Assembly: GCA_963793305.1 (NCBI GenBank)
Contig: CAWBZV010000003.1
Location: 448,001 to 512,000 of the forward strand
Length of the DNA: 64,000 nt
Reading direction: 5' to 3'
Origin: an uncultured Gemmatimonadales bacterium
GTDB taxonomy: Bacteria > Gemmatimonadota > Gemmatimonadetes > Gemmatimonadales > Gemmatimonadaceae
Positions within the stretch are counted from its first letter, which is position 1; each line of letters starts with the position of its first letter. A program made the position numbers and the translations under genes. Shown piece after piece: positions 22,574 through 64,000 of the stretch. The notes below the pieces were generated by a model. It was not told the DNA's origin, did no database searches, and worked only from the letters and a program-made list of their open reading frames with translations.

Positions 22574-22669
22574 ATATCCACATACCGGTCACAGCGCTAA
22601 TCACGGTTGTGATGTGAGTTAGGCCATACGCCAAATGTTCTCCACAACTGGTTATCCACGTTATCTACA
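22574..22669 (+). promoter_or_regulatory. Cluster of co-oriented DnaA-box-like 9-mers
   Basis: ATATCCACA 22574, TTCTCCACA 22638, TTATCCACG 22652, TTATCTACA 22661, each one mismatch from TTATCCACA, in a relatively AT-rich spacer. Confidence 0.65.
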
Positions 22670-33277: not shown

Positions 33278-34186
33278 GTGTTGATCGCTGCTTTGATCGG
33301 TAATGTCGCCGATCGTACGAATTTCGCCGGCTCGCTCCGGCGCGAGATCACCGCGCGATTCTGCGCGGATAGCGAGGAGTTGCACTCGCTCGTCGCGACT
33401 GGCGTGGTCGACGCCATCGTGGCTGATCTCGACACGGTCCGCCATGCGAGCCTGTGGCCGAGTGTGCGGGCGATCGTCGACTGGCATCCGACGATTCCGC
33501 TGGTGCTGTGGCTCTCGCTCACCGGCAACGACATGCGCTCGCTCGTGGCGATCGCGAGCGAGATCGCGCTCGACGCGGTGATCATTCGCGAGCTCGATGA
33601 CTGCACGGCCATCATCGCCGGTGCGATCCGGTCGGCGTGTGAGGGGAGTGCGACACAGACCGTGGTGCGGGCGATCGAGCGCCTCGCGCCGCGGTCGGTC
33701 CGTTCGCTCCTCGTCATCGGTGCGCGGCACGCCGAGCGGCCGTTGACGGCGCATGCGTGGGCGGCGAGGGCGGGAGTGTCGCAGCGGACGCTGTTGGCGC
33801 GCGTGCGTGACGCCGGGCTACCTCCGGTGCATCAGCTGATTCGGTGGTTTCGGCTGCTCCATGTCGCGGCGCGGCTCGATATGCCGAAGGCAACGGTGGA
33901 GCGAGTCGTCGAGACAATGCGTTTCACATCGAGTGCGACACTCAGGCATCTGCTCAAGCGGGTGACGGGTCTCTCGCCGGGTCAGCTGCGCGACGCCGGG
34001 GGCTTCGAGTACCTGCTCGGTGTGGTCGAGCTGATGCTGTCGCCGGAGGGCGGCGATACCGCAGCAGATCAGGATTCGCCGCTGGCCGACCTTGGCCGTC
34101 TCGATCAACACCTGCAATCTGCATGGTATGAGTCTCGCGGACCTGACTCGCGCTCATCACGTATGCCGCGAAGAGCGGACCGCTGA
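33278..34186 (+). CDS. AraC-like HTH regulator with receiver-like N-terminal domain (paralog 1)
   Basis: AARAGVSQRTL, LIRWFRLL, FTSSATLRHLLKRVTGLSP. Confidence 0.8.
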   Translation: MLIAALIGNVADRTNFAGSLRREITARFCADSEELHSLVATGVVDAIVADLDTVRHASLWPSVRAIVDWHPTIPLVLWLSLTGNDMRSLVAIASEIALDAVIIRELDDCTAIIAGAIRSACEGSATQTVVRAIERLAPRSVRSLLVIGARHAERPLTAHAWAARAGVSQRTLLARVRDAGLPPVHQLIRWFRLLHVAARLDMPKATVERVVETMRFTSSATLRHLLKRVTGLSPGQLRDAGGFEYLLGVVELMLSPEGGDTAADQDSPLADLGRLDQHLQSAWYESRGPDSRSSRMPRRADR

Positions 34187-35271
34187 TCTCATCCGGCACA
34201 CACGGCGTCAGCTGGACCACTCGATCGCCGCGGAAGTTGACGCGCATGCGCATTGGATCGAGGGGCAGTCGGCCGATCCGCTGCCGTACTATCATTTCGC
34301 CGAGATGTGCAGGTGGTATGGGCACTTGGACCTTTGGCGAGAGGCGGTCGACATCGCGCACGGCCTGTCGCACTACACGCCCGAGCAGCTGATCGAACGC
34401 GCGCACGCCAAGCTGCTGCTCGGCGACTGGTCCGGGTGGCGCGATCGTGAGTCACGCTTCTTTCTTGGCGGCACCGGATTGCCGTATCAGCTGCGCTCGA
34501 TACGCGAGCGCTGGGATGGTCGTGAAGATATCGTCGGCAAGTCGCTGCTCATCGTGTCTGATGGCGGGTTTGGCGACTGCATCCGAGATGCTCCGCTTCC
34601 TGCCGTGGATCACGCGCACGGCTCGTCGGGTCACGCTCGCGGTGCAGCCGGAGCTCGTCGAGCTCGCGACCTACAACTTTCCTGATACGAGTATCTGCAC
34701 GATCCAGGACGCGATCGCCACGTCGTACGACCGGTACGTGTCGGTCCTCTCATTACCAGCGATGGTCGGCGCATTGCCGCCATTCGAGGCTTTGCGAGCG
34801 CCGGTGCCCGCTCGCCACGCCGGCATCGGACTCTGTTGGGCAGGGAGCCCGCTCACGCAGATGGAGCTTCGCCAACCGCTGTCGCTCGATGCGTTCTCTC
34901 CGCTGTTGGCACGCGGCGATGTGAGTTGGTACAGCTTGCAGATTGGCCCGCGCGCGGACGAGGTCGTGAGCTATCCGACGGTCACGGTTCCACCGGAGCC
35001 GCTGTCCACGTTCGCCGAGACGGCGAACCTGATCGCGGGGCTGGACGCCGTGGTGACGGTCGACACGTCGGTGGCACACCTGGCAGGGTGTCTGGGCGTG
35101 CCGACCTTCTTGTTGCTGCATGTCGTCGCCGACCCACGATGGGGGCTTGCTGACGCGACGCCATGGTACCCCTCGATGCGCTTGATTCGGCAGCGGAGGC
35201 CGGGGGACTGGACTGGTGTGATCGACGAGCTCGCGGAGCGCATCGCGGTCACCATCCCGCGTGTGGCGTAG
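34128..35271 (+). CDS. GT9/heptosyltransferase-like protein with short helical N-domain, paralog 1 (frameshift near 34583)
   Basis: AKLLLGDWSGW, WDG, DGGFGDC..MLRF, LDAVVTVDTSVAHLAG, RWG, TPWYPSMRLIRQ..GDW. Confidence 0.82.
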
Positions 35272-35314
35272 TAGAGTCATCGCGCTGTGAGGGTGAATCT
35301 TTCGCGCCCGAGGT

Positions 35315-35608
35315 ATGGGTATGCCACACGACCGATTCGCCGTCACACGGCTCACGCCGGCACAAGGGGTCCGACTCGAGCATCAGGGCAGCCAGCACCT
35401 GCTCGTGAACACCAGGAATGGTGCGCGCTGTGTGCTCAATGCGTTGGGCAAGCGGATCTGGATGCTGCTGGCCGGTCGGCCGACGTTTCCAGCGCTCGTC
35501 GGCGGATTGGGTGGCGCGTACGATCAGCGCCGGGGTGACTTAGTGCGCGACGCCGGGCGTCTGCTGCTCGCGTGGCAAGAGGCCGGCTTGATCACTTGGA
35601 CAAGCTAA
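35315..35608 (+). CDS. PqqD/RiPP recognition element (RRE) protein 1
   Basis: LLVNTRNG..CVLNALGKRIWMLL...LVRD...WQEAGLI. Confidence 0.75.
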   Translation: MGMPHDRFAVTRLTPAQGVRLEHQGSQHLLVNTRNGARCVLNALGKRIWMLLAGRPTFPALVGGLGGAYDQRRGDLVRDAGRLLLAWQEAGLITWTS

Positions 35609-35646
35609 CGGTGCCATCGACACGGCTGCGATGATGCCCGGCTAGC

Positions 35647-36447
35647 ATGGTGACGGTCGGGGCGCTCGTCCGTGACTACGCAACGCAAGACTCGGTGGCG
35701 CTGCAGCTGGCTCGCGTCGCCAATGTGCAGTTCGTCGACAGCGCCGCGGCTCTCGTTCAGCTGGCGGTCGAGTGTCGCGTCGGCGCGTTAATCACTGAGC
35801 TGACCGACGAGGCGGGTCGTTCGGTGGCGCCGATGGTGGTTGAGCTCTTGGCGCGCGCGCCGTCCTTGCCGATCGTGCTCTACGATATCTTGAATCGCCC
35901 GGCGATCCATCGCCTGACGGAAATTCTCGTGCCGGGGCTTCGGATCGAGTTCGTGTTGCGCGACGCCGAGCCGTTAGGGACGACGATGCGTCGCGCATTG
36001 GCGGCGACGTTGCCGGCCTCGGTCGCCCCGGTCTTGCTCGAGCGCTTCTTGCCATTAGCGCCAACCTCGTTGCACGTCTTTCTCGCGGTCGCCGCGCTCA
36101 AGGCCCCGTCGGGCCGGAGCCTCGAGCACCTTGCGCATTGGAGTGGGATCACGCGTCGCACGCTGGCGCGCCGGCTCGCGGCGGCTGGTTGGCGGCCGCC
36201 GAGCGTGGTGTTGCAGACGTTTCGGGCGCTCGACGCGGTGTGGCTGATGACGGTCGATGGGCGCACGGCGCGGCGCGTGCAGGAGTTGCGCGGTCTCGGG
36301 AGTCCGAGCTCGGTGGGGCGGTTGTTGCGGCGATATCTGGGGATCGCGCCGCTCGAGCTTCGTGATGTGGGGGGATTCCCTGCGGCGCTCGACATCGCGG
36401 CGCATGCCATTACTGGTAACCATGCAAGCGCGCTTCGTCACGGCTAG
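35647..36447 (+). CDS. AraC-like HTH regulator (paralog 2)
   Basis: LAHWSGITRRTLARRL, GLGSPSSVGRLLRRYLGIAP. Confidence 0.78.
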   Translation: MVTVGALVRDYATQDSVALQLARVANVQFVDSAAALVQLAVECRVGALITELTDEAGRSVAPMVVELLARAPSLPIVLYDILNRPAIHRLTEILVPGLRIEFVLRDAEPLGTTMRRALAATLPASVAPVLLERFLPLAPTSLHVFLAVAALKAPSGRSLEHLAHWSGITRRTLARRLAAAGWRPPSVVLQTFRALDAVWLMTVDGRTARRVQELRGLGSPSSVGRLLRRYLGIAPLELRDVGGFPAALDIAAHAITGNHASALRHG

Positions 36448-36489
36448 CTCTGTCGGCCGTCACGCGTCGATCTCGCGTGACTCCGAGGT

Positions 36490-36560
36490 GCAACTCTGTC
36501 CCAATCGCGCAACTCTGTCCACCACGGCCGATTCCTGTCCGAAGAGGACGTTGGTAGACT
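36490..36560 (+). promoter_or_regulatory. Direct-repeat operator plus extended -10 upstream of AraC paralog 3
   Basis: GCAACTCTGTCC at 36490 and 36509, partial ..CTGTCC ending 36540; TGgTAGACT at 36552-36560. Confidence 0.55.
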
Positions 36561-36566
36561 GACGCC

Positions 36567-45654: not shown

Positions 45655-46983
45655 TCACACGGCGTCGGATACGCTCGTGAACGTGAAGTCGCGTGCCTTG
45701 AGCACGGGCATGGCCGTATCGCCATCGCCGACTCGACGCACCGGCCCGAGTGCGTCGAGGTTGTTGAGCACGAACAATGGCGACTCGTTGAAGCGCAGGT
45801 TCTTGACGGCCCGCGTGATCTCACCGCGCTCAATGAGAAACACTCCGTCGCGGGTGAGCCCGGTGTGCAAGGCTGTTTGTGGGTCCACCTCAACGGTGTA
45901 CCAGAATCGAGTGACAAGCAGGCCACGGTCAGTGCTGCGGATCATGGCCTCACGCGACATCGGACCACCGGCGACCTTAGATGACGTCGCACCGCCTATG
46001 TATAGTCGGCCTTGTCTTTTCGCCCAGTACCGTGAGCTCCACAGTTGCCGCAGGACGCCACGCTCGATCCAGACCTGCCGGCTGACCGGAAACCCATCGC
46101 CATCGAACGGCGCCGCGAGCAGATCCGGATCGGAGGGATCGGAGAACAGCGTTACGCGCGGGTCGACGACTTGCTGACCAACTCTGTTCCCTCCTCCGGG
46201 TTTGGCGAATGGGCTCCGACCTTCGTCGGCCTCGCGCGCACCGAACGACAGCAGGCCAATGATGGTGTTGGTCGCCTCTGGCTCTAAAATGACTGTGTAT
46301 CGCCCGGGCTCGATTGCCGCGGCGTTCCGGGAGCAATGTGCTGTATCGAGAGCACGTGACGCGACGGCGGCTGCATCGAGGTGCGTCCAATCGTGCTCAT
46401 TCGCTGACGCCCAGCCGGAGCCCATGCCATCCACGCTTCGCACGGAGAGGGTGTAGGTCGCGCCGGTTGCGCGCCAGTAGGCGGACAGTCCCGCGCTGTT
46501 GGCGAGCAGCGAGGATGTCGCGTTCGTCTCAATGGATCCGGCGGCCACGAACCCTGAAGACCCCGATTGCCGGGCCGGCTCGAGCGCCGCGAGCGCCACC
46601 TGAGCGCGCTCGCCTGCTCCAACTGCGGCCGTCGACTCAAAGTAGGCGTTGATGTCCTGATGGGTTTGTGGACCGAGCGGCGGCATAGCCTCCGGGTCCT
46701 CGGGCACGAGCTTGGCCAGCGACTCTGCGCGGTGAACGGCGGTCCGGAGGGCATCGTCTGAAAGATCGTTCGTCTGAATGGCAGCGTGCCTCGCGCCGAA
46801 CGACGTGTCGATGACGACGTGGGTGTCACGGACATCGCCGACAGTCGTTAATTCGTTCACCGCGAATCGCGTGTTACCCGTCATGGTGCTGACGATACCG
46901 ACGACTGTGACGTTAGCGGTCGCGAATCGACAGATTCGCGCCGCGATGTCTTCCAACTCCGTGCGCGGCAATGGCGAGCTCAT
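45655..46983 (-). CDS. TldE/PmbA family protein
   Basis: TRFAVNE, IEPGRYTVILEP, PFDGDG, TGLTRDG, NLRFNESP; no HExxH. Confidence 0.88.
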   Translation of the reverse strand: MSSPLPRTELEDIAARICRFATANVTVVGIVSTMTGNTRFAVNELTTVGDVRDTHVVIDTSFGARHAAIQTNDLSDDALRTAVHRAESLAKLVPEDPEAMPPLGPQTHQDINAYFESTAAVGAGERAQVALAALEPARQSGSSGFVAAGSIETNATSSLLANSAGLSAYWRATGATYTLSVRSVDGMGSGWASANEHDWTHLDAAAVASRALDTAHCSRNAAAIEPGRYTVILEPEATNTIIGLLSFGAREADEGRSPFAKPGGGNRVGQQVVDPRVTLFSDPSDPDLLAAPFDGDGFPVSRQVWIERGVLRQLWSSRYWAKRQGRLYIGGATSSKVAGGPMSREAMIRSTDRGLLVTRFWYTVEVDPQTALHTGLTRDGVFLIERGEITRAVKNLRFNESPLFVLNNLDALGPVRRVGDGDTAMPVLKARDFTFTSVSDAV

Positions 46984-48575
46984 ACGCGCCGTCCGGTGTT
47001 GATGACGTTCACTTGCGAGAACAACGCTGGCACTGAGCCATGACTCACTGCGTTGGTCTGTACCGGCTCTCCTTTGCCGTCGGCGAATGTTCCCCGGAGC
47101 TCATAACTCCGTGGCCCGCCCAGCATCCGGAGCGAGTTCCAGAAGTCGAGCGTGCGAATCTGATAGCTCACATCTCGCAGCATCCCGATGATCTTGCCCC
47201 CCCTGATCTCATAGAAGAGCTGGCCGCCGAACTGCGCGTTGTATCGTTGATGGTCGATCGAGAATGAGCCGTTGCCGATGATCGCGATGCCGTGGTCAGT
47301 CGCGGCGATCAGATCTTCCCACATCAGGTCGTGATCACCCGGCAGGAGCGACACGTTCGGCATCCGCTGGAACTGTATACTTGCCCAGTCTTGCGCGTAG
47401 GAACAGCCGTGCGAGCGTGTGGGCCGTCCCGTTTTGTCGTACCACCACCTCAGCCACTGGGCCTGCTCGCGGGTGGTTTGATAATCGTCCAGTATCCCGT
47501 TCTTGATCAGCAGGAAATCATCCGGCGCGACGCCATCATCGTCGTATCCAATTGTGGCCAAGGCGCCCGGTTGGGAGCGGTCGGCCCGCACGTTCATGAT
47601 CGAGGGCCCATATTGCAGCGCACCGAGCACTTTCTCCGGCGGTGCGACGAAGCTCGTGCCGGCCAGGTTCGCTTCATAACCCAGCGCGCGGTCGAGCTCC
47701 GTCGCGTGGCCGATCGACTCGTGAATGGTGAGCCAGAGATTCGAGGGGTGGAGCACGAGATCGTATCGCTCGATCTCGACCGGCTTCGCACGCAGCTTTG
47801 TCGCGGCCTGCTCGGCCCACTCACGGGCACGGTCGACGAGGCCAAGTTCATCGACGTATTCCCACCCACGTCCCATTGGCGCCAGCGGGATACTAATGGA
47901 TTGAAATGCGGTGCGGTCCGATGAAATCGCGGTGAGGTCCATGGACGGTCCGCTGCGGATTGCGGTCTGGGAGATCACCGAGCCATCAGTCGAGGCGTAG
48001 TGACGCTCTTCTTTGCCGAACCACAGGCTGCTGGACGCGAACTCCACCTTACGAGTTGCGAGCGCAGTCGAGTTGGCCCGCAGTAGCAGGTCGACTTCCT
48101 GTTCGACCGTTACATCGAACGGATCGATGCGGTAGGGGCTAGCCCACCGCGCGCGTTGAGCCGGCGCCGCCGCGAGCTCGACCGGCATATCACGAGCGGC
48201 ACGCGAGGACTTCGACACGGCCACCGCTTGTCGCGCGGCGGCGGTGACGCCGTCAGGCGTCAGCACGCGGGTCGCCGCGAAGCCCCAGGTGCCATCGACC
48301 AGGGCGCGGACGCCGCAGCCGACGCTGTCAGATTCGCCGACTCCCACAACCTGATGCTCTCGGGTTTGGATCCCGTGGCCGCGCAGGCGCTGGATCCGCA
48401 CATCTGCGAACCGCGCTCCAGCCGATTGCGCAGTGTCCACCGCGCGCGCGAGCAACGTCTCGATGGTTGGCGGGTCGTTCATGACTCGTTCCAGCCATCG
48501 GAGCGCACGACCACGACCAGTCGCGACAGCCGCCATCGCCGTGGTGTGGCTCAGAAAGTCGCGGCGGCTGCTCAT
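46980..48575 (-). CDS. TldD family metalloprotease with Tat signal
   Basis: SRRDFL; ADVR, GTWGFA, HESIGH..ELDR, YDDDG, QRMPN, DGKGEP. Confidence 0.9.
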   Translation of the reverse strand: MSSRRDFLSHTTAMAAVATGRGRALRWLERVMNDPPTIETLLARAVDTAQSAGARFADVRIQRLRGHGIQTREHQVVGVGESDSVGCGVRALVDGTWGFAATRVLTPDGVTAAARQAVAVSKSSRAARDMPVELAAAPAQRARWASPYRIDPFDVTVEQEVDLLLRANSTALATRKVEFASSSLWFGKEERHYASTDGSVISQTAIRSGPSMDLTAISSDRTAFQSISIPLAPMGRGWEYVDELGLVDRAREWAEQAATKLRAKPVEIERYDLVLHPSNLWLTIHESIGHATELDRALGYEANLAGTSFVAPPEKVLGALQYGPSIMNVRADRSQPGALATIGYDDDGVAPDDFLLIKNGILDDYQTTREQAQWLRWWYDKTGRPTRSHGCSYAQDWASIQFQRMPNVSLLPGDHDLMWEDLIAATDHGIAIIGNGSFSIDHQRYNAQFGGQLFYEIRGGKIIGMLRDVSYQIRTLDFWNSLRMLGGPRSYELRGTFADGKGEPVQTNAVSHGSVPALFSQVNVINTGRRV

Positions 48576-49705
48576 ACGGGTTTCACCGCACCTTCCCACC
48601 AGTGCGCATCGAGAGCTTCTTGTAATTGGTTTTGGACACCCAACCAGTCCCACCGGCTGCGTTGCCGGATGAACCGCATCGTCGGATACCACGGCGTGGT
48701 ATCGGCGAAGCCCCATTGGAAGTCACCGGGAAAGGGGAGAAGAGTCAGCGTTGGCGCACCGAGTGAGCCTGCCAAATGAGCGACAGAGGTGTCGACGGTG
48801 ATCACACCGTCGAGACTCGCGATCAAGTTGGCCGTGTCCGCGAATGACTCGAGTGGCGGGTCCGGCAACCGGAGGAATCGCTTATAGATAAAAGCCTCGT
48901 CCGCCCGTTCGCCGACCTGCAGGCTATAGAATTCAACATCGGGTCGCCAAAAGAACGGCATGAGAACGCGCAAGGACAACGAGCGCTCCATGTGGTCGAA
49001 CCACCCGCTGCACGCCCATGCGAGTCCGAGACGAGCGGGGTTCGTCCGTTCCGGCAACGTCAGCGGCGAGGGGGCTGACCGGCGCACGAAGGGCGGCAGC
49101 GAACCAACCAGTCGGGGCAGGAGGCTGGCGTTCAGCGCGCGATCAAAGTGGGCGTCGGTCCTGGTGCGATCCCACGCCTGCATGCCCGACAGGTGACCGA
49201 AGTTGTACTCAAAAAATCGTATCAAGTTCGCGTCGACGGCCCAGAAGATCGGCGCCGATACTCTATCGTGCAGCGCTTCGGCGAAGCGCAGCCAGCTAAT
49301 TGTTGCGCCGTAGTCAGTGAGCTCCGCGACGAGGAGCGTCTTTCCGGAGAGGTCTTCGACCCCATCCCACCAACGATCCACACCCGGAGGGAGAAACTCG
49401 GGATTGGTCGGCCATGACACGTCTTGCCAACCGTTCCAGTCGCCGAGCCGCTTCAGCGCGTCGCGTCGGTCAGCGGTGCTTTTGTCCGAGTCGTGCGGTC
49501 GAGTCAAAGCGAGAGCTACACCCCAGCGCCAGAGAGGGATGGAACCACCATCCAAGCACGCGTTGGCGAGCCGGTAGAGATGTACGGGGTTCTCGCGCTC
49601 GCGGCTGGCATGCGCGACGTATAAGTCGATCCGATGCGTCTCCGGGAGGTCCCGAAAGGCGGCGCGGCAGGCCTCGAAGTAAAAGGCGACGTTGTTCGTG
49701 GTCAT
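48572..49705 (-). CDS. GT9-like protein, paralog 2 (GD motif altered to GA)
   Basis: RLGDWNGW, WDGVEDL, TDYGATISWLRF, LDGVITVDTSVAHLAG, TPWYPTMRFIRQ. Confidence 0.82.
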   Translation of the reverse strand: MTTNNVAFYFEACRAAFRDLPETHRIDLYVAHASRERENPVHLYRLANACLDGGSIPLWRWGVALALTRPHDSDKSTADRRDALKRLGDWNGWQDVSWPTNPEFLPPGVDRWWDGVEDLSGKTLLVAELTDYGATISWLRFAEALHDRVSAPIFWAVDANLIRFFEYNFGHLSGMQAWDRTRTDAHFDRALNASLLPRLVGSLPPFVRRSAPSPLTLPERTNPARLGLAWACSGWFDHMERSLSLRVLMPFFWRPDVEFYSLQVGERADEAFIYKRFLRLPDPPLESFADTANLIASLDGVITVDTSVAHLAGSLGAPTLTLLPFPGDFQWGFADTTPWYPTMRFIRQRSRWDWLGVQNQLQEALDAHWWEGAVKPV

Positions 49706-49774: not shown

Positions 49775-51650
49775 TCACCGATACCCAACCGCCTGCAGCT
49801 CGAACAGCTCAGCATACAAGCCGTTCTGCTTCAGGAGGTCTTGATGCCCGCCGTCCTCGACGACGGAGCCGTGTTGGAGAACCACGATGCGGTCGGCCAT
49901 GCGGATCGTCGAAAATCGATGCGAGATGAGCATGGCCATCCGGCCGGCCATCAACTCGGAAAAGCGCAGAAAGACCTCGTACTCGGCCCGAGCGTCCAGC
50001 GCCGCGGTCGGTTCGTCGAGAATAAGCAGGTCGGCAGCCCGCAGGTACGCACGCGCCAAGGCAACTTTCTGCCATTCCCCGCCGGACAGATCGACGCCGT
50101 CATCGAACCGTTTCCCGAGCATCTGGCGATAGCCATGCGGAAAGCGAGGAATCAGAGTCGATGCGAGCGAATCTTCGGCGGCCGCGATGATCGACGGGAC
50201 GATAGTCGCGGCCGGCTCGGTTCCCGGTTCGTGGCCCGCCACAGCGTCGAGGTACGACCGCGTCTCATCGATTCGACCGACGCCGATATTTTCGTCGAGC
50301 CGCATGTCGTAGCGGACGAAATCTTGGAAGATCACGCCGATCGCTTGGCGAACGGACCCCAGGTCGTACTCACGGAGATCCAAGCCGTCGAGCAGAGATG
50401 CGGCCTTCAGTCGGGTCGTAGAGGCGAGCGATGAGCTTGGCGATCGTCGTCTTGCCAGCTCCATTCTCACCGACAAGCGCGAGGCGCTCGGCCCGGCGCA
50501 ACTCGAAGTTGATGCCGCGGACGGCCCAACGATCGGTCCCAGGATATCGGAATCCGACACTCTCGAACACGAACCCATGTCGGATGGGTGACGGAACCAA
50601 CGGTGCGCGCGGCTTGCTGACGATCGTCGGGCGGATCTCGAAAAACAGGAAGAGATCGCGCAGGTAGAGCGACTGCTCGTACACATCGCGCGCCTGGTTC
50701 ACCGAATTCTGAATGATCGATCGCACCTGCATGAAGGCGCCAGCTAGGAAGGTCATCGACCCGAGCGTAACCGCGCCGCTCATGGTCGCGATCAGGATCA
50801 TGGCGTAGCCGCCGTAATACCCCAGGGTTCCGAGGAGGGCCAAGCTGGCGCCGGCGCGAGCGCGTCGCACCGCGAGTTTTCTATTTTCATTATAGTAGCG
50901 CTGGGCAAGCGTCCGGAATCGGTCTCGGAGCCAGATGCCGAGTCCGAAGAGCTGCACCTCTTTCGCCGTTCGGTCGCACGCCCCGACGTACCGTATGTAA
51001 TCGAGCTCGCGACGCTGCGGTGTCCAACTGTAGGCAAGCGAGTAACTGAGCCCCGCGAAGTGCGCCTCGCTCACCAGGCCCGGGATCACGGCCACGAGCA
51101 GGATCACGAGCAACCACGGGTTGAACGCGAGCATAGCCGCCGCAAAGCCGACGAGGGTGAGCCAATCTTGCCCCATCGACAACAATTGGCCAATGAGATT
51201 GATGCGGGACGTCGATTGTTGGCGTGCGCGCTCGAGCAAGTCGTAGAACGTCGGATCTTCGAACTGCGTGAGGTCGAGCGTCGCGGCGTGCGCCATGATG
51301 CGCTCGCTGACGCGGTTGACGAAGAGGTCACCCAGGAGCGAGTCGACCAGCGCCGACAAGCGACCAACGACCTCTGCGGTGGCGACGATCGTCAGTTCGA
51401 TCGCAAACAGTGTCCACATCCGGTGCCAATCCGGATTGTGCCCTCGACCGGCCGCGACGACATCGATGATCAACTTGCCGACCCACAGCGTCGCGAGCGG
51501 GAGCGCGGCCCGAATGACGCGGAAACCACCCATCGTGAGGGCGAGCGCCGGGCTGGTAGACCAAACCAATCTCAGTAAGCGCGGGATGTATCGCAGCCCC
51601 GCTAGTCGCCGACGGAATCCGGACGGTAGGCCGTTGGCGCGGGTCGACAT
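49775..51650 (-). CDS. ABC exporter, fused TMD-ATPase (frameshift near 50395)
   Basis: 6-TM domain, GENGAGKTT, IFQDF, LSGGEWQK, LDEPTAALD, SHRFST. Confidence 0.92.
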
Positions 51651-51775: not shown

Positions 51776-52126
51776 ATGAGCGAAGAACACGGTAATGGTG
51801 CGATGCTATCTGGCGACCATCTCGTCACGATCCCGGAGACGGTCGCGTCGATGCAGGTTGGTGAGGACACGCTCGTCCATGATATGATCACGCAGCGGTT
51901 GCACCGACTCGATGCGGTCGGAACGCGGATCTGGGAGCTGATCGATGCTGGCCACACGGTCGAGGTCATCGTGCAGACGCTCGCCAAGGAGTACCAGTTG
52001 CCGGACGACATGCCACCATCACAGTTACATGACGATGTGTTGGCAATAGTGTCCGACCTGCATCGCCTCGGCTTGGTCCTCAGCGATCACGCCGGCTCGA
52101 GGATCTTGAAATCTACCAACTGCTGA
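51776..52126 (+). CDS. PqqD/RRE protein 2
   Basis: HRLDAVGTRIWELID...IVQTLAKEY...DVLAIVSDLHRLGLV. Confidence 0.85.
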   Translation: MSEEHGNGAMLSGDHLVTIPETVASMQVGEDTLVHDMITQRLHRLDAVGTRIWELIDAGHTVEVIVQTLAKEYQLPDDMPPSQLHDDVLAIVSDLHRLGLVLSDHAGSRILKSTNC

Positions 52127-53171
52127 ACGGTCCAGTTGGAAATCCGTGTACCGGAACGCTGCGCCTGCGCCTGGATATCGGCGGTGGCACGTTGTCCATC
52201 AAAAAGTGGCAGAATGTCAACGATACCCGCCAGCACCACGAGTCGATCAGACGAGCCTAGGCTTTGAAGGTGAGCCACGCTGTCTTTGCCGTTGGTGACC
52301 CAGAACCGTCGGACGCGTAGCCGATCAGGTACCGAGTCAGACACCAACTCGTCGTACGTCTCGCGGCTAAGGCGCGCGGCAAGGCGAACCCGCGGTCCAC
52401 CAATGGCGAGAACATCCGGCCACGACAACACAGATACCAAGCGTGCCGCGCTCGAGTAAAACTCGCGCTCCCGGCCGTTCCATGTATCTCCCCAGGCTTG
52501 TCGATAGAGCGCCGGATCACTCTCATTGTCAATGTCTGCCGCGGTGACGCGCCCGGGCCGTTTGGCGTTGTCGCGCGATGCCAGGAGGTACTTCAGTGCG
52601 GCGCCGCCAATGTCCAGGTGCTCAATGCACCAGAGCTCGATGAGATGACTCGATCTCACTCAGCAAAGACAGGAGACGGCGCCAGAACTCCCGTCCGACG
52701 GATCCCCGCACGACCTGACAGTAATACGTCGAGCAGATAGCGTTTCGGTATCGCCAGAATGCCGCACAGCCCACCAGCTTCGATGTAGTGCGGGCACCTC
52801 AGCCCGCGAGCGACGCCAAAGGCGTGGTCGGCTTGAGCATAGAGCAATGCATATGTTGCTGGCGCATCCAATCCGAACGGCGTGACTCCCACCTTGGCGG
52901 CGATGCGCGCCTCGACCGAGTGACGACCGATGTCTGTTTCGGGCGATGTGTCGTTGAGTATGCCCCCGACGGCGAAGTTCGGGAGGTGGGGGAAAAATGA
53001 GCAGCACTTCACATCGGGTCGGAAGGGTGCCACGCCGGTCTCTGGGGAAGGTCGGCACATGGTGCAGTCCGAACACGTCGCGCGCGATTCGTCAGGAATT
53101 GGACCACCAAACAGGTCCTGCAACCATCTCGCGGTGAGTGGCGGCAACTGCACTGACGCTGGGGAACGCAT
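52087..53171 (-). CDS. Cys-rich YkgJ/CxxCxxCC-like putative Fe-S protein (two frameshifts)
   Basis: CSDCTMC...KCC...CPHY...LCGI; shifted frame WRYRNAICSTYYC; continues into ORF 52087-52659. Confidence 0.65.
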
Positions 53172-56648: not shown

Positions 56649-57787
56649 TGGGTATGCCATCCTCCGCTGGGGTCGTGGAATGGGTCGATGCATGCCGACA
56701 CACTTTCGCCGATCGCGCCGAGGCCTACCGAGTCGCGTTGTACGCGTCACTCGTGGATCCTCAGGGCGATACGCCAATACCTCTGTACCGCCTCGCGAAA
56801 GCCTGCCTGGATAGTGGAGAGTGGTTGCTGTGGCACCAGGGAGTCATGTTCGCGTTCACCCTTGAACACCGAACGGCTCAATCACTCTGCGAGCGAGCGC
56901 TCGCCAAGCTCAGGTTAGGCGACTGGTCCGCATGGCGCGACTATGAGGCTCATGCAAAAAGCCCCGCCTTCAGCGTCGCCCACGCAACGTGGCTTCGCTG
57001 GCGGTACCCGCTATGGGACGGTACCCAGGATATTCGGGATCAAACACTCCTCGTCCAACGGATGGGCGGCTATGGCAATGTGATCTGGTCGCTGCGGTTC
57101 ATTCCACCCATTGCAACACGCGTTCGCCGGCTCATCTGGGATACCAGTCCGGCGCTCATGGATTTTGTGCGATACAACATGAGCCATCTGGCCGCGGTGG
57201 AATCAGTCGATCGCGACCCGCCCGACTTGGACTTCGATTGGCATGTCTGGTGTATGTCGCTTCCGCACGTCAACGGCGGGATACCGCCGTTCGTTCCGCT
57301 CACGGCTCCAGATCCAATCCAATGGCCTCGCTCCCCTGAAAGGCGACTGCGAGTTGGTCTGTGCTGGGCATGCAGCGACGAGGCGCTCGATCAACTGGAG
57401 CGGTCCATTGCATTGAGTTTCTTGGCGCCGCTTTTTTGGCATCCGGGCGTGGAGTGGTACAACCTGCAGGTCGGATCGAGAGCGCACGATAGCGACTACT
57501 ATCCAGGCGTCAAGCAACCACCATTTCCGCTCCGCACATTTGTCGACACCGCGAATTTGCTGGTCGGGTTGGATTGCGTCATCTCGGTGGACACGGCTAT
57601 CTGTCATCTAGCGGGGAGTCTCGGCGTGCCAACGCTGACACTACTCCGCTGTACCGCTGATGCGAAGTGGGGGCATCTCGACACGACGCCTCTCTATCCC
57701 TCCATGCGCTTGATTCGTCAACGGACTCCGGGCGATTGGCTCGGGGTGGCCGAGACCGTGCGTGAGGAACTCAATGCCCGTCTCTGA
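56648..57787 (+). CDS. GT9-like protein, paralog 6 (GD motif altered to GN)
   Basis: TAATG coupling; LGDWSAW, GGYGNVIWSLRF, SVDTAICHLAG, TPLYPSMRLIRQ. Confidence 0.85.
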   Translation: MGMPSSAGVVEWVDACRHTFADRAEAYRVALYASLVDPQGDTPIPLYRLAKACLDSGEWLLWHQGVMFAFTLEHRTAQSLCERALAKLRLGDWSAWRDYEAHAKSPAFSVAHATWLRWRYPLWDGTQDIRDQTLLVQRMGGYGNVIWSLRFIPPIATRVRRLIWDTSPALMDFVRYNMSHLAAVESVDRDPPDLDFDWHVWCMSLPHVNGGIPPFVPLTAPDPIQWPRSPERRLRVGLCWACSDEALDQLERSIALSFLAPLFWHPGVEWYNLQVGSRAHDSDYYPGVKQPPFPLRTFVDTANLLVGLDCVISVDTAICHLAGSLGVPTLTLLRCTADAKWGHLDTTPLYPSMRLIRQRTPGDWLGVAETVREELNARL

Positions 57788-58697
57788 TCCGTACCGACTC
57801 TATCAAGTCGCCGAATCGCATCGAGAGTGCGGCGATGAGGAAAGTTGGAAAGAGATCGTGATGGACGCCTTTCAGCTCCCTCATCGGACCAAGCAACAAC
57901 TCTTCTATCGAGGCCAAGCGAAGATCGCGCTCGGTGATTGGTCTGGTTGGGTCGACCGCGAGGCGCGACTGTTCAACCCCGACGAACAATTGTGGCGTTG
58001 CTCGTACTGGCGCCAGGTACGGGCGAAGACGAAGGCTTGGGATGGCAAAGAGGATATCCGGGACAAGGCACTGTTCGTCATCGCCGATGGAGATGATGGC
58101 GATTGTCTGCAAATGCTCCGATTCATTCCGGATCTCACCGCGAAGGTCGACACGCTCATCCTCGGTGTCAGTCCTGCACTGCTGTCACTCGTGAAGCACT
58201 TTTTCGCCTCAAAGGTGACGGTGACGTTTCGAGAGGTCGATCACGGGCTGCCGTTCCAGCGGTATACATGGATCATGTCGTTACCAGCGCTCTGCGGCGC
58301 ACTTCCGCCGATCGTGCCATTCACCGCGCCCAGACCGCAATCGCCCCCTCGCCTGGCAGATGGGCGTTTTCACGTCGGCCTGTGGACAGCGCCAGAATCT
58401 GTTCCTCCTGCGACACTCGCCGGCATAACAAGCGCACTGGCACGTGACGACATCCAATGGCACGACCTGCGACTGGGCACCGGCGCCATCCGAACGTATG
58501 CTGATGCCGCGAACGTTATCGTGGGCCTGGACTACGTGGTGAGTATCGACTCGCCAATTGCCCATCTCGCGGGTTTGCTCGCGGTGCCGACGCTCGTGTT
58601 TCTCAGCTGCCGAGCTGATCTCCGGTGGGGATTGACCGAGACAACGCCATGGTATCCCTCGATGCACATCACCCGACACTTTGGAGACTCCGTATGA
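57774..58697 (+). CDS. GT9-like protein, paralog 7 (short C-terminus)
   Basis: GAGGA RBS; LGDWSGW, DGDDGDCLQMLRF, SIDSPIAHLAG, TPWYPSMH. Confidence 0.85.
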   Translation: MPVSDPYRLYQVAESHRECGDEESWKEIVMDAFQLPHRTKQQLFYRGQAKIALGDWSGWVDREARLFNPDEQLWRCSYWRQVRAKTKAWDGKEDIRDKALFVIADGDDGDCLQMLRFIPDLTAKVDTLILGVSPALLSLVKHFFASKVTVTFREVDHGLPFQRYTWIMSLPALCGALPPIVPFTAPRPQSPPRLADGRFHVGLWTAPESVPPATLAGITSALARDDIQWHDLRLGTGAIRTYADAANVIVGLDYVVSIDSPIAHLAGLLAVPTLVFLSCRADLRWGLTETTPWYPSMHITRHFGDSV

Positions 58698-58822
58698 CAA
58701 CCGCGTATCGAAAGCCGACGATCCTCTGCCTTGGCGCCGCCGAGGTCTTGACTCGTGGAGGGTTCGGAAACAGGCCCGAACTCCGCACAGGTCCAACTAG
58801 CATCTCCCTGCTCGATCTCTGA
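58694..58822 (+). CDS. Lasso peptide precursor (42 aa)
   Basis: MTTAYRKPTILCLGAAEVLTR|GGFGNRPELRTGPTSISLLDL: YxxPx(I/L) leader motif, G..LT with Thr at -2, core Gly1 and Glu8; GGAGA RBS; ATGA-coupled. Confidence 0.88.
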   Translation: MTTAYRKPTILCLGAAEVLTRGGFGNRPELRTGPTSISLLDL

Positions 58823-58831
58823 GGCAGGTAC

Positions 58832-59992
58832 ATGCCATCGAGCGAACAGCTCCTCGATGAGTGTATTCGTCGGTTGAGTCCAAGCAATGCGGCGGCGCTA
58901 CTGCCACGGTTCCGATCGGCATTCGAGCGGTATCCCATCGCGCCGCCGCTCCTGTATAGCATCGCGACCCTGTGCCTGCAGTTCGGATACGAGGAGTTGT
59001 GGGAGCACTACGATCGTCTCGCCTTTGCCCTGCCTCACGCCACCAACGAGGATTTTTATTTTCGATCCGTGGCGAAGCTTCGTCGGAGCGACTGGTCCGG
59101 GTGGTTGGACCGAGAAGCCAGGCTCATCAGCCCGCATGAAGCGCCGATCTGGTACCCGCACTTCCTCGAAATGCAATGGACGACGCGCGCCTGGGACGGT
59201 GTAGAACCGATTCAGGATAAAACACTGTTGGCGATCGCCAATGGCGGGTTCGGCGACTGCTTGCAGATGATACGGTATATGCCGCGTCTGGCGGCAATAG
59301 CTGGTTCGCTCATCATCGCGGTGCGGCCGCAAATCCTCTCGTTGGTCGAGCACAATTTCGGGCGGATCGCCACGGTCGTGTCGACAGAGCGCTTACCATT
59401 GATACCCTTTCAGCGGTACGTGTGGATGATGTCCCTTCCCGCATTGATCGGATCCATACCGGCCTTCGACGCGCTCAGGACTCCCAGCGCGACTCCGGCC
59501 GCTCCGCGTGAGGGCCGGTTGCGAGTCGGTCTCAATTGGGCCGGCACTTCACATCATCCGAACGATCGCGACGACAACCTCCGCTCCATCACACTCGACG
59601 ACCTCTCACCGCTGCTGGAGCTCGAGTGGGTCACATGGTATAGCGTGCAAGTTGGGCGGTGGGCCTCCGACGCCGATCACAATGCCCGCATCGTGCAACC
59701 CTCGACGCCGATCCGAAGTTTTGAAGATTCCGCCAATCTCGTCGCTGCTCTAGACTGCGTCGTGACGATCGACACGGCGGTTGCGCATTTGGCCGGCAGC
59801 CTCAATGTACCAACGTTAGTACTCCTGACATGGCTGCCGGAATTTCGCTGGGGTCTCGTCAGCGAGCGTACGCCATGGTACCCAAGCCTTCTGTTGATCC
59901 GACAAACGTCGCCCGGCGACTGGCCTGGCGTGTTCGATCGAACCTTCCAGCATCTGCGGGCGCTTTATACCGGGGCAGCTGCTTCAGCGTAA
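58832..59992 (+). CDS. GT9-like protein, paralog 8
   Basis: SDWSGW, NGGFGDCLQMIRY, VGLNWAG, TIDTAVAHLAG, TPWYPSLLLIRQ..GDW. Confidence 0.85.
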   Translation: MPSSEQLLDECIRRLSPSNAAALLPRFRSAFERYPIAPPLLYSIATLCLQFGYEELWEHYDRLAFALPHATNEDFYFRSVAKLRRSDWSGWLDREARLISPHEAPIWYPHFLEMQWTTRAWDGVEPIQDKTLLAIANGGFGDCLQMIRYMPRLAAIAGSLIIAVRPQILSLVEHNFGRIATVVSTERLPLIPFQRYVWMMSLPALIGSIPAFDALRTPSATPAAPREGRLRVGLNWAGTSHHPNDRDDNLRSITLDDLSPLLELEWVTWYSVQVGRWASDADHNARIVQPSTPIRSFEDSANLVAALDCVVTIDTAVAHLAGSLNVPTLVLLTWLPEFRWGLVSERTPWYPSLLLIRQTSPGDWPGVFDRTFQHLRALYTGAAASA

Positions 59993-61105
59993 GTCTCATC
60001 GAGCAGCGTATTCACCTGAGCGATCGAGCTCGACCAGTCGCCTGGTGCGCATTGCCGAATGAGCCGCATCGCGGGATACCACGGCGTGACGTCCCCTAGT
60101 CCCCACCGCCAGTGGGAATCGTATTGCAAGAGCAGCCATGTTGGAACGCCGAGATTCCCCGCCAGAATGACACACTGAGGTGTCCACGCTGACCACGTAG
60201 TCCAGTTCCGTGATCAGGTCCGCCGTGTCGCCGTAAGTGACGAGTGGCGGATCAGGATTGATCAATGCGGGGTAATCGTTGGCGTCCGCGACGCGATCGC
60301 CGACTTGGAGGCTGTACCATTCCACGTCATCTCGTGCGAGCAACGGCACCGTCTCGGCGATAGGCATTGACCGATCTGGATCCTGCGTGAAGTCGGGACT
60401 GCCGGCCCAGCAGACGCCGGCCCGGATGGGTCGCGTCCGTGGCGGCATTTTGGGACGCCGTCGTGGTGCGGCAAGCGCGGTGAAATCGGGAAGCCGGCCG
60501 AACGTACCTGGCAGCGACATGCTCCACACATACCGGTCGAACGGTATCGTGGGTTTGATCCCATCCAGCCATATTTTGGCGAGTGAGCCGAAGTTGAATC
60601 GAGCGAGAGGGGCCAATCGCGGATACACCATCATGAAGACGGCGCTGGCTATTTCGGTCAACGGCGGAATGAATCGCCACATCTGGAGGCAATCGCCGTA
60701 TCCCTGCTCCGGCAGCACCAGGATAGACTTGTCCGCGAGATCCTCCTTGCCGTCCCACATGCAATGCTTCCAGCAGATATCTCGATATTTGTCCAGATCT
60801 TCGATGGTGTCCGGCGCCCCCAGGCGCGCGCTGTACTCAGCCCATCCGTTCCACTCGCCGCGCTCGATCTTGGCCAGGGCGCGCGCGTAGGTCTGTTGTG
60901 GTGTCACGTGGGGTAGCGCCAGCGCGAGATCGACCTGGTGCTGCCAATCGGGATCGCCTCGCCGTCGAAGCGTGAACGCGAGGAGATAGCGCGGCATGGG
61001 GTTGGCCGGCTGCTGCTCGGCGACGGTTGTCAATTCTTCCGCCGTATAAATGGTGCGGGGGCAACGTCGGTGTGTCGGCACCGGTTCGGAGGTCGGCGCC
61101 GTCAT
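59965..61105 (-). CDS. GT9-like protein, paralog 9 (frameshift near 60165)
   Basis: GEWNGW, EQGYGDCLQMWRF, GVCWAGSP, SVDTSVCH; shifted frame LAGNLGVPTW...WRWG...TPWYPAMRLIRQ..GDW. Confidence 0.85.
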
Positions 61106-61449
61106 GGTTCGGCGTGACCAGAGGCGACGTTGGGCTCGGTTTCCAGCAATCCGTATTCGCTGAGCGCGGTGACGATCGTCAACACATCGCGTTGCACTTG
61201 CCCCGGCGCGACATCCACGGGCATGGCGTATTCGGCTTCGATCGTCGCGACGATTGATCGTATCGTCGCGCCGCCTTCCAGCAATTCCCAAATGCGGCTG
61301 CCAATGTCATTGAGCCGGTAATTTGCGTGAGTTTGAAGATTGTGAACCACGGTATCGGTATCACCTGGCGCGGCCACCGCATATGCGGAAACCGTGACAC
61401 CGCTGTTGATATCGAGTCGTGCGCGTGTCGTACCTTCAAGCTCGCTCAT
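61102..61449 (-). CDS. PqqD/RRE protein 3
   Basis: YRLNDIGSRIWELL...IVATIEAEY...DVLTIVTALSEYGLL; close paralog of 51776-52126. Confidence 0.85.
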   Translation of the reverse strand: MSELEGTTRARLDINSGVTVSAYAVAAPGDTDTVVHNLQTHANYRLNDIGSRIWELLEGGATIRSIVATIEAEYAMPVDVAPGQVQRDVLTIVTALSEYGLLETEPNVASGHAEP

Positions 61450-61787: not shown

Positions 61788-62099
61788 GTGTTGTTCACCC
61801 AGCGACCCCAACCAGTGTCTCCGACGGACGCGCGGCGATATCGCGCGATCCCTGGAGTGCTGTCGGGGTGCTTTGAGGAAGAAACCTTCCTGTTGAGTCT
61901 CGCGACAGGTCGGTACTACAAGCTCGACAACGTCGGAACTGAGGTGTGGCAGCTGCTGCGCCAACCGAAGGCGTTTCCCGACATCGTGAGCGACTTGGGG
62001 CAGGTCTATGACATCGCTCCGTCGACGCTAGCGGCGGATGTCGCTGAGCTCATGAACCGCCTCCTTGGCTACAGGGTCATCGAGGTCATCAACTCATGA
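61788..62099 (+). CDS. Lasso peptide B1 (PqqD/RRE) protein
   Basis: LLSLATGRYYKLDNVGTEVWQLL...YDI...LAADV; coupled to B2. Confidence 0.88.
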   Translation: MLFTQRPQPVSPTDARRYRAIPGVLSGCFEEETFLLSLATGRYYKLDNVGTEVWQLLRQPKAFPDIVSDLGQVYDIAPSTLAADVAELMNRLLGYRVIEVINS

Positions 62100-62479
62100 C
62101 ACTACCGAGTGTGATGCACTGTTTCGGACGAATGCTGGCCATAAAAGTGTCGCTCAAAACTCGCGGCTTGGGCGCGACGCTCTCGCGGTACTGCCAATCG
62201 CCGACGGACGTTCGTCGCGACGACTCGATCAGCGATGACCTCGTCGACCAAGTGGCGTTTCAGGTCGCCGGCGCCGCCGCGCTGTTTCCGGGGCGCGCCC
62301 TCTGTCTCGAGCAAACGCTCGTACTGCATGGAGAGTTGCTGCGCATCGGTGTCGACTCTCGGATCCGGTTCGCTGTCACGCCGTATCCATTCAAAGCGCA
62401 CGCGTGGATCGAAGTGCGAGGTCGTCCGATCAATGAGAATCTGCATTGGCTCAGCCAGATGACACTTCTCGAGACTTAA
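62096..62479 (+). CDS. Lasso peptide B2 leader peptidase (transglutaminase-like)
   Basis: ALCLEQ (Cys), PFKAHAWIE (His). Confidence 0.92.
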   Translation: MTLPSVMHCFGRMLAIKVSLKTRGLGATLSRYCQSPTDVRRDDSISDDLVDQVAFQVAGAAALFPGRALCLEQTLVLHGELLRIGVDSRIRFAVTPYPFKAHAWIEVRGRPINENLHWLSQMTLLET

Positions 62480-62484
62480 TCACC

Positions 62485-64000
62485 GTGGATACCTTCGTCT
62501 GCCTGATGAATACGCGTGGCCACGGTGTCGTCCCCGAGTCACGTCGGCGGTACGGGCTCGATGACACCGGCTGGCAGTCAGCTGGACCATGCAGCATGTA
62601 TGTCTCAAATGATGGATACGGTCCCGTGGCATCGATCTATCGCGGATCGATTGGCATCGCCGCAGGCATCATCCGCCTCGACAACCGCGTCGAGATCCGG
62701 CGCCAACTTCGGGCAAGCGACGACCAGTCCGATATCGCGTTGGTCGCCGCCGTGCTGCATCGCCGAGGCGTCGACGGCGTGCAGGAGCTCGTGGGCGATT
62801 TTGCGCTGGCGTATTGGGACGTTGCGCGGTCGGAATTGATCATCGCGCGGGACTTCATCGGAGTTCGCCCGCTTTATCGCGTACAGGACGGTGATCTGTG
62901 GGGGTTCGCCTCCCACGCGGGCGTTCTTGGCCGGGGACGGGAGCTGTCGCTCGAATTCGTCGCGGACTACATCGCGTTCAATGTGTCGAGACAGCGCACA
63001 CCATATGCCGGCGTGTTTGCCGTCCCTGCCGGAACCGCCCAGGTGCTCAACGGTCGGCGGAGCACCGAGCATCGGTATTGGTCCGCCTATCGGTTCTCGA
63101 CCGATGATCGGATCGACAGCAACGAGGCGGTCGAAGCGTTCAGGCCTTTATTCACCGAAGCGATTCGGCTGCGTCTGACCGGAAAGCAGGACTGCTGGGC
63201 AGATCTCTCTGGTGGTCTCGATTCGTCATCGGTTGTCTCGATGAGTCAGTGGCTCGCGAAGCACGACGGCGCCGTGCACGGCTTGGCGGGAACCTTGACG
63301 TACGCAGACACGCTCGGCACTGGCGACGAGCGGCCGTACGCGAACGCGGTGATTCGCGATTGGCCTCTGCCGAATGAACAATTGATCGACTACGGATTGT
63401 GGCAGGACGACGGCGAGCCGCCCCTTGTCGCGGATATTCCGGACCAGTCGTCCGCGTCGTACGCTCGAGAGCGGCGAGTCTGTCGGATCGTTCGGTCAGC
63501 GGGCGGCCGCGTGCTATTCACCGGAGTGGGCCCCGATCAAATGCTCTTCGGCAACTATGTGTATTTCGCTGATTGGCTCGTGCGGGGGCGAATTCGCGAG
63601 GCGGCTCGGGGGATGTTTCGACTCGCCGCGCTGGGCAGAGGGTCATTCTGGAAATTCGCGTATGAGAACGCCATCAGGCCGTTCTTTGGATCGCCGGCGC
63701 TGAAACGTGAAGCGTGGCCGGCATGGGTTCGGCCCGAGTTCGCACGTCGATTCGCGATCCACGAACGCAATCCAATGGCGTGGACCCCTCGCGGCCGACC
63801 GGGCCGCTACTTTGCCACGGACCTTGCGGGCAACATCGACATCATCACACATGCGATGATCCGCGGCGTGGTCGGTGATATGCTCGACATCCGGAGTCCC
63901 TTCCTGCATCGCCCGCTGGTCGAGCTCTGTCTGCAACTCTCTCCGCAGGTGCTGGCGAGGCCGCGGGACCAGAAGTGGGTCCTCCGCCAAGCGATGCGAG
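62485..64000 (+). CDS. Lasso peptide cyclase C (asparagine synthetase-like), 3' truncated by window
   Basis: Manual frame-1 translation: RLDNR, GDFALAYWD, ARDFIGVRPLY, LSGGLDSS, RSPFLHRPLVE, KWVLRQAM; lacks the AsnB N-terminal MCGI. Confidence 0.9.
   Translation, partial: MDTFVCLMNTRGHGVVPESRRRYGLDDTGWQSAGPCSMYVSNDGYGPVASIYRGSIGIAAGIIRLDNRVEIRRQLRASDDQSDIALVAAVLHRRGVDGVQELVGDFALAYWDVARSELIIARDFIGVRPLYRVQDGDLWGFASHAGVLGRGRELSLEFVADYIAFNVSRQRTPYAGVFAVPAGTAQVLNGRRSTEHRYWSAYRFSTDDRIDSNEAVEAFRPLFTEAIRLRLTGKQDCWADLSGGLDSSSVVSMSQWLAKHDGAVHGLAGTLTYADTLGTGDERPYANAVIRDWPLPNEQLIDYGLWQDDGEPPLVADIPDQSSASYARERRVCRIVRSAGGRVLFTGVGPDQMLFGNYVYFADWLVRGRIREAARGMFRLAALGRGSFWKFAYENAIRPFFGSPALKREAWPAWVRPEFARRFAIHERNPMAWTPRGRPGRYFATDLAGNIDIITHAMIRGVVGDMLDIRSPFLHRPLVELCLQLSPQVLARPRDQKWVLRQAMR

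Follow-up and report, generated by a model that had tools for sequence, protein, structure and literature searches.

The window, as we call the whole 64,000-nt stretch of DNA that was analysed (G000:C3:448001-512000), comes from an uncultured bacterium and holds nine paralogous glycosyltransferase (GT) genes, four RRE genes, the number the earlier note had given, and part of a lasso peptide cluster that continues past the window end. Positions beyond that end are given on L001, where the coordinate equals the window position minus 58000. GT7, GT8 and GT9 are gene names below; the enzyme family is written as the GT9 family or GT9 fold. The features are:

33278..36447, + strand, satellite module AraC - GT - RRE - AraC (GT 34092-35271, frameshifted; RRE 35315-35608)
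48572..49705, - strand, GT paralogue lacking the putative catalytic Asp
49775..51650, - strand, ABC exporter, split by a frameshift
51776..52126, + strand, third RRE
52087..53171, - strand, Cys-cluster protein, frameshifted; RRE-fused in L016
53178-54455, 54256-55461, 55515-56648 and 56360-57787, + strand, four tandem GT paralogues, the last with Asn at the putative catalytic Asp
57762..58697, + strand, GT7, C-terminally truncated at the A1 start (likely start 57774)
58683..58688, + strand, Shine-Dalgarno-like GGAGAC of A1, also coding the final Gly-Asp of GT7
58694..58822, + strand, precursor A1, 42 aa (21-aa leader and 21-aa core, predicted Gly1-Glu8 ring)
58832..59992, + strand, GT8, intact (short TPR-like helical unit and a GT9-like GT-B fold)
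59965..61105, - strand, GT9, RRE-coupled, with a frameshift near its 3′ end in the assembly
61102..61449, - strand, RRE (PqqD), stop overlapping the GT9 start (ATGA)
61788..62099, + strand, B1, lasso RRE
62096..62479, + strand, B2, lasso leader peptidase (NF033537 above cut-off)
62446..64000, + strand, C, lasso cyclase of 617 aa, ending at L001 6299 past the window (NF033535 E 6.8e-51, below cut-off)
L001 6489-6620, A2
L001 6648-6782, A3
L001 6900-7028, A4
L001 7037-7169, A5, with a one-base frameshift
L001 7170-9401, - strand, S9 peptidase (NF033523 E 2.5e-24, below cut-off, tied with Dpp5)
L001 9307-10671, - strand, SusD-like gene
L001 10616-13642, - strand, SusC (above cut-off)
L001 13983-14990, - strand, FecR-like gene (label by eye)

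Frameshifts also interrupt MutS (window 1106-3636) and DnaA (21424-22622), which makes indel errors in the assembly probable. The frameshifts of the cluster were considered as proof of decay and rejected as such, because these two genes are split too and a near-identical contig lacks one of the indels.

Several neighbors merit a brief description. The AraC-RRE-AraC module (window 33278-37652; L011 16560-19674; L012) has a GT before its RRE in G000 and G004, not in G001, and is possibly a peptide-sensing regulator. The Cys-cluster protein, found also in L023, L037 and L016 (2034-3458), belongs to no named family; its nearest Atlas clusters are mostly Myxococcota hypotheticals, with a weak YkgJ lead. 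In L037 it adjoins lasso genes without GTs, and we regard it as a candidate second RRE-guided tailoring enzyme. A TldD/TldE pair (window 45655-48716, - strand) adjoins the GT array, as it does in L022, and is a candidate for peptide trimming. The same genome has two further lasso clusters without these GTs, at G000:C3:763813-767247 (L013) and C5:654740-657255 (L014); the former contains a peptidase, SusC/D and three precursors that are rich in Ser/Thr.

As the earlier note had it, the frame at 58694..58822 encodes a 42-aa peptide whose ATG overlaps the stop of GT7 as ATGA, and GT8 starts 9 nt past its stop. GGAGAC lies 5 nt upstream of this ATG, and GGAGACT is common to A1 and the downstream paralogue A3. 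The only start in the ORF listing, a GTG at 58625 that had been called spurious, was rejected: it lacks a Shine-Dalgarno-like sequence and lies inside GT7 in another frame. Starting at 58694 places the N-terminus four residues ahead of the leader Tyr, as in 17/17 aligned family members (A4, P0097 and P0110 were left out of this alignment, the last having a long N-terminal extension). An identical 42-aa protein is called on a 2,926 bp Logan contig; since that contig may come from the same sample, it backs the start call rather than wider occurrence.

A YxxPx(L) leader motif and a conserved Thr ahead of the cleavage site define lasso precursors as described in PMC7168211, and A1 has both, as Y5-R-K-P8-T-I and Thr20 (Thr-2). 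The ring acid of lasso peptides is given as Asp or Glu at core position 7-9 (PMC9266682); A1 has Glu8 there and Gly1 at the core start, in keeping with the Gly1-Glu8 ring predicted earlier. B1, B2 and C, encoded 3-5.5 kb away, supply a nearby RRE, peptidase and cyclase. The proposed cleavage site likewise agrees with the wider family, where Thr(-2) is present in 20/20 members and Arg(-1) in 3/20. The A1 tail has no aromatic plug residue. Among the curated precursor models (benenodin, albusnodin) the best match is the benenodin model NF033522, at 18.3 bits against a cut-off of 33 (E 0.0016), and a Pfam scan of A1 gave no match. By these comparisons, A1 belongs to a precursor family separate from the named lasso precursor models. 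The core opens with GGFGN (window 58757-58771), similar to the GGFGD motif of the GTs; this likeness is not kept in the family and is probably chance. A1 is almost certainly a real precursor gene, and we expect with good confidence that it is processed by the B and C enzymes of this cluster. Taken alone, it is an ordinary extra precursor copy.

A1 had been described as a single hidden precursor. This does not stand: four paralogues, A2-A5, follow the cyclase just past the window end, in the usual place for precursors. A1 shares 50-57% identity with A2-A4. A profile of A2-A4 made without A1 matches A1 with E=2.5e-10 among 123,556 six-frame genome segments (best non-paralogue E=0.33), and a profile from two foreign precursors alone matches it with E=1.9e-7. 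Over 39 aligned codons, A1 and A2 differ at 16/8/26 first/second/third positions and use a different codon for 15 of 23 conserved residues; A2 and A3 differ at 3/1/7. This bias toward third positions implies that A1 is an old paralogue under selection, neither a recent copy nor a chance frame, and A1 shows the substitution pattern indicative of purifying selection. The start codon of A4 is TTG, and no clear ribosome site precedes it.

The family considered here has 20 members, 16 of them foreign and obtained from protein searches. From the 15 matches of one search, A1 itself and one 857-aa repeat protein were dropped, and P0115 was left out of the count because it nearly duplicates P0106. All 20 members share the leader residues Pro(-14), Leu(-9), Gly(-8) and Thr(-2), and 19/20 have Gly1. 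Every member has a Glu at core position 8 (three members), 9 (11) or 10 (six), and the ring and loop positions are variable across the family. The tail is invariant, in the form T-[S/T]-x-x-x-L-D-L-stop: with numbering from the C-terminal end, 20/20 members have Thr(-8), Ser/Thr(-7) and LDL. This conservation is partly circular, as members were gathered with a tail-containing profile; P0104 and P0110, which are best matched by the leader alone, carry the same tail. The invariant hydroxyl pair corresponds to Thr14/Ser15 of A1, whereas Thr11 and Ser17 are not conserved. Of the four O-glycosylation sites proposed earlier, the tail thus favors Thr14 and Ser15 over Thr11 and Ser17. Phe, Tyr and Trp are absent from 16/20 tails. 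Ser/Thr richness was considered as evidence for glycosylation and rejected, since a GT-free cluster in the same genome has equally rich precursors.

In 5/20 members, including A3 and A4 when cut at the same place, the only acid in ring range is at position 10, outside the 7-9 rule. For A3 and A4, whose leaders end in Thr-Thr, a cut one residue later also fits Thr(-2) and gives a 9-residue ring; for P0103, P0105 and P0108 the Thr(-2) rule does not allow this. A sole ring acid at core position 10 is seen in two unrelated precursor families (L001 6648-7169, P0103, P0105, P0108; L007 13442-14058). Engineered fusilassin tolerates rings of 7-10 residues, as described in PMC13352647, and a search of open-access literature for natural 10-residue lasso rings returned nothing relevant. 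A second precursor family occurs in GT-bearing clusters, with four tandem copies in each (L009 13734-14584, L007 13442-14058, L016 10469-11063); there the Thr(-2) cut gives unusual core starts (Lys, Thr, Gln, Met, Ile, Leu, Cys). Relatives of the A1 family were also sought in genomes. In the genome contig set, 0 of 44 pattern matches were confirmed and a further search gave 0 matches; none were found in 60 related genomes; and 400 family genomes yielded one borderline match only (E 9.9e-4), inside a 228-aa frame.

We turn now to the GTs. The GT8 model (pLDDT 78) begins with about 90 helical residues that are weakly TPR-like (E 0.034), followed by a GT-B fold. Its top four structure matches are GT9-family and TibC-type enzymes, including WaaF and WaaC (Z 14-16, rmsd 3.4-3.6, 228-247 aligned), with a GT9-family structure at Z 16.1 (rmsd 3.5, 243 aligned) and TibC at Z 15.7 (rmsd 3.4, 247 aligned). 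On this model, the GTs are predicted to fold like the GT9/TibC heptosyltransferases. At the sequence level the match to the GT9 family is weak and local: the best Pfam E-value is 4.5e-6, that to WaaC is 0.24, and the PF01075 match spans 33-61 residues only. Three of eight GTs pass the Pfam cut-off, none comes near the TIGR cut-offs, and no full-length match to PF01075 or a heptosyltransferase model was found in the eight scanned. TibC heptosylates autotransporter proteins, and its Asp110 is a candidate base (PMC4358343). Asp142 of GT8, which sits after the first strand, is invariant in alignments of close homologues, and an Asp after the first strand is kept in 7/9 window GTs. We infer that Asp142 is the catalytic base from its position in the alignment rather than from superposition. 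This assignment also leans in part on WaaC. The genome encodes an HldD that passes its cut-off, along with HldE-like and GmhA-like genes that do not; lipopolysaccharide synthesis alone can explain these genes, and it is doubtful that heptose is the sugar transferred.

In a quick tree that omits one row and does not include the frameshifted satellite GT, the window GTs and their homologues group as a 51-member clade, separate from 10 general TPR-GT proteins (SH-aLRT 99). The GTs of one subclade stand immediately after an RRE gene in 5/5 clusters with known context. At this junction the two genes overlap by 4 nt in the window (61105-61102), L009, L007 and L016; in L019 they lie 2 nt apart. These five RRE-coupled GTs group with P0014 in one clade (SH-aLRT 99). 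P0014 is itself a 490-aa RRE-GT fusion of the same subclade, with copies in JGI and in Logan/ENA whose contigs differ in size; a search for further RRE-GT fusions found none, the fusion being one cluster of two sequences. The model of the fusion is confident for the GT part only and does not resolve how the RRE packs. A subclade GT also lies between RRE and B2 in G001, G005 and L016. Additionally, two foreign precursors and GT8 homologues lie on contigs of equal size (523,951 and 114,075 bp), which makes them the same contig by size only.

Linkage of the GTs to lasso genes is incomplete. Among 12 distinct GT loci, counted after removing duplicates and the weak fragment L025, six have B2 and C, three have an RRE only and three have neither; the loci are close kin, not independent, and may in some cases belong to a single genome. 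The three with no RRE or lasso genes in the surrounding DNA examined are L018, L020 and L022 (4.7 kb). At L018 (2406-13722), six GTs come shortly after epimerase, HAD and PfkB genes and are followed by SusC, with no lasso gene in 17.5 kb. We take these epimerase, HAD and PfkB genes to resemble the ADP-heptose pathway (HldD/HldE). At L020 (4441-11098), clade GTs adjoin a DUF4135 protein, presumably lanthipeptide-synthetase-like, together with DUF6065 and an ABC exporter, and a second RiPP class is possible there. Across six genomes of the genus, 14 B2 loci were found and 13 examined (two cut by contig ends), of which 3/13 carry this GT. Among 251 family genomes, with at most seven candidates scored per genome and one unpublished genome (G161) included as a negative only, GT matches at E<1e-120 occur only in G000, G001, G004 and G005. 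At E<=1e-75, the clade was found in 0/400 phylum genomes (four candidates scored per genome), and a further genome scan gave five distant loci and no new close member. The precursors of the GT-bearing G001, G005, L016 and L021 lack the LDL tail, and the pairing of tail and GT is therefore not strict.

How these GTs relate to A1 can be read in more than one way. We lean toward the view that A1 is a functional old paralogue in an isopeptidase/TonB-type lasso cluster whose products undergo leader-guided O-glycosylation by GT9-fold GTs, and, with the same slight preference, that A1's own lasso is glycosylated by these GTs, a candidate activity suggested by gene content and conservation. It is also conceivable, though we think it unlikely, that A1 is a real lasso precursor whose product goes unglycosylated. 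The tail would then be read by the receptor, SusD, the peptidase or a target, and the GTs would act elsewhere, on a surface glycan or protein, or be non-catalytic peptide-binding or immunity proteins in the same island. This would account for the GT arrays next to which no lasso gene is visible (L018, L020, L022), for the heptose-pathway-like genes next to L018, for the two window GTs lacking the Asp, for the unrelated tails in GT-bearing clusters, and for the similar isopeptidase/SusC clusters of the genus that have no GT. However, it leaves unexplained why RRE and GT are coupled in 5/5 clusters and fused in P0014, why a GT sits between RRE and B2 in three clusters, and why both invariant tail positions are hydroxyl residues.

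The position of A1 among the GTs, which the earlier note regarded as the best link between GTs and peptide, proves to be weak evidence. Of the 59 sequences measured (62 were examined, three of them without the motif), all except GT7 have 29 residues or more past the WYP motif; GT7 has 15, and its last helix is missing. P0016, the GT7 orthologue, is complete, last helix included. The missing part begins at A1's ribosome site, which coincides with the Gly-Asp codons. Recombination at the shared GGAGACT is possible, as is an assembly deletion at the GT7/A1 junction. In either case, because GT7 is cut short at A1, the ATGA overlap looks like a rearrangement scar or assembly deletion: the overlap behind the earlier proposal of translational coupling is there, but GT7 has lost its last helix and the coupling does not look like a conserved one. 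The syntenic L019 keeps the order GT8, GT9, RRE, B1, B2, C without a precursor upstream of its GT8 orthologue. No precursor was found on a contig of equal size to those of P0002/P0016 among the members compared (all but three). The array position of A1 thus appears to reflect a local rearrangement and is not a reason to link it to the GTs; RRE-GT coupling and fusion, as seen in the gene arrangements, are the stronger GT-RiPP link. A 151-nt contig from a second study's run bridges the A1 3′ end and the GT8 start, which indicates that the A1-GT8 side of the junction is real. No contig among those listed, which are short (51 pieces unlisted), spans the GT7/A1 side. Scans for promoters and terminators gave no more than expected by chance, A1 is not flanked by repeats of the kind that would point to an insertion element, and no RNA sequencing run with cluster sequence was listed.

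A rearranged junction invites another reading, namely that A1 is an orphan that arrived as part of a GT7-A1-GT8 block derived from a related cluster, and that the substrates of B2 and C are A2-A5 only. The distance of A1 from A2/A3 at silent sites, with 26 third-position differences against seven between A2 and A3 (39 codons), the location of A1 at the GT7 truncation, and the lack of a precursor at this position in L019 are all consistent with such an origin. Yet the A1 frame, its ribosome site and all family-invariant residues are intact, its Glu8 ring is within the usual 7-9 range, and a single cyclase can form both 8- and 9-residue rings, as described for the caulosegnins (PMC13352647); we regard an orphan A1 as distinctly improbable. 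Finally, the notion that the GTs modify the mature threaded lasso with no need for the leader, as IgtG does, and that the extra RREs act for the Cys-cluster protein or for the AraC regulators, can draw on the davasin precedent (PMC11912497), on the RRE fused to the Cys-cluster protein in L016 and on the AraC-RRE-AraC module without a GT in G001, but RRE-GT fusion and coupling point to leader-guided action in at least one subclade, and we give this notion very little credence.

For leader-guided glycosylation, the following pathway can be proposed. A1 would be translated together with the GT operon. A GT-coupled RRE would bind the YxxP leader and present the linear precursor to the GT, which would transfer a sugar from a nucleotide donor (ADP-heptose is possible, by fold) to the invariant Thr14 and/or Ser15. 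B1/B2 would then cut after Arg21, and C would close the Gly1-Glu8 ring around the tail. The peptide would be exported, taken up again through SusC/D and opened by the peptidase; export followed by recapture has been proposed for isopeptidase clusters (PMC9266682). What the sequence itself shows is a lasso leader with its core, the B1/B2/C genes, further genes for an exporter, peptidase and receptor, and a clade of GT9-fold enzymes that is tied to RREs. Against glycosylation, nine GTs (two without the Asp, one truncated) exceed the needs of a 21-aa core. A sugar-decorated lasso of a new kind is nevertheless plausible from the gene content. Extending this further, a family of Gemmatimonadaceae lassos might be O-glycosylated, possibly heptosylated, by RRE-guided GT9/TibC-fold enzymes at the invariant Thr-Ser/Thr pair, with the sugar as a steric plug, an idea drawn from the 16/20 tails without Phe, Tyr or Trp, and with a machinery that natively closes 8-, 9- and 10-residue rings. 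We consider this broader scheme speculative and improbable as a whole.

The interesting part of this locus is the RRE-linked GT9-fold family and the invariant tail, not the 42-aa ORF. Its five precursors and two invariant candidate sites, together with relatives whose RRE-GT pairs are intact, make the cluster a ready test set, and the precursor family gives a direct test of the 7-9-residue ring rule. If the proposal is true, the RRE would make the GT a programmable peptide O-glycosyltransferase. Glycosylated lassos are rare, the examples named in PMC11912497 being the davasins (GT2) and pseudomycoidins (kinase and nucleotidyltransferase); a GT9-fold enzyme guided by the leader would add a third route to them.

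Like the isopeptidase lasso clusters of astexins, benenodin-1 and sphingopyxin I, as described in PMC9266682, the A1 cluster combines B and C with a putative prolyl-oligopeptidase-like enzyme, a TonB-dependent receptor and a gene that looks FecR-like. These likenesses are uneven: the S9 peptidase falls below the NF033523 cut-off, SusC is above its cut-off, and the FecR and sigma labels were assigned by eye only. Rubrinodin, in the same source, similarly combines an ABC transporter with an isopeptidase. The A1 cluster differs from the isopeptidase clusters presented there in its split B1/B2, three extra RREs, SusC/SusD, nine GT9-fold genes and a Cys-cluster protein, and no GntR gene was seen by inspection before its precursors.

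With regard to glycosylation, the davasins of Streptomyces davaonensis are lassos O-glycosylated on Ser by IgtG, a GT encoded in their own cluster, much as is proposed for A1. However, IgtG is described as a deacetylase/GT2 protein acting on the mature lasso (PMC11912497), whereas the A1-cluster GTs are GT9-like GT-B proteins coupled to RREs. Pseudomycoidin (PsmK/PsmN; PMC9266682, PMC11912497) has a glycosylated lasso tail, as would the proposed A1 product, but there the sugar is on a phosphorylated C-terminal Ser and requires a kinase and a nucleotidyltransferase, while the A1 core ends in Leu. No GT2, kinase or nucleotidyltransferase of the known glycosylated lasso systems was found among the cluster ORFs scanned. 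A search of open-access literature, by listing, found no GT9/heptosyltransferase in ribosomal peptide synthesis and no lasso GT of this phylum.

As for the enzymes themselves, TibC/AAH and the GT9 family (WaaC, WaaF; PMC4358343) have the GT-B fold in common with GT8, and TibC also glycosylates protein. Identity to these enzymes is only about 8-15%, an N-terminal TPR-like unit in the A1-cluster GTs replaces the TibC beta-barrel, and a four-Cys iron finger is not evident in the alignments. RRE-GT fusions known from genome mining (PMC7470986, PMC12710340) are, like P0014, an uncharacterised architecture. PF01075 does not occur in the main texts or text supplements of these two papers; RRE-Finder Fig. 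S7 and the datasets lie outside that coverage and may list the family. For its RRE-GT fusion PMC12710340 names PF00535 (GT2), unlike P0014, which belongs to the clade with the predicted GT9 fold.
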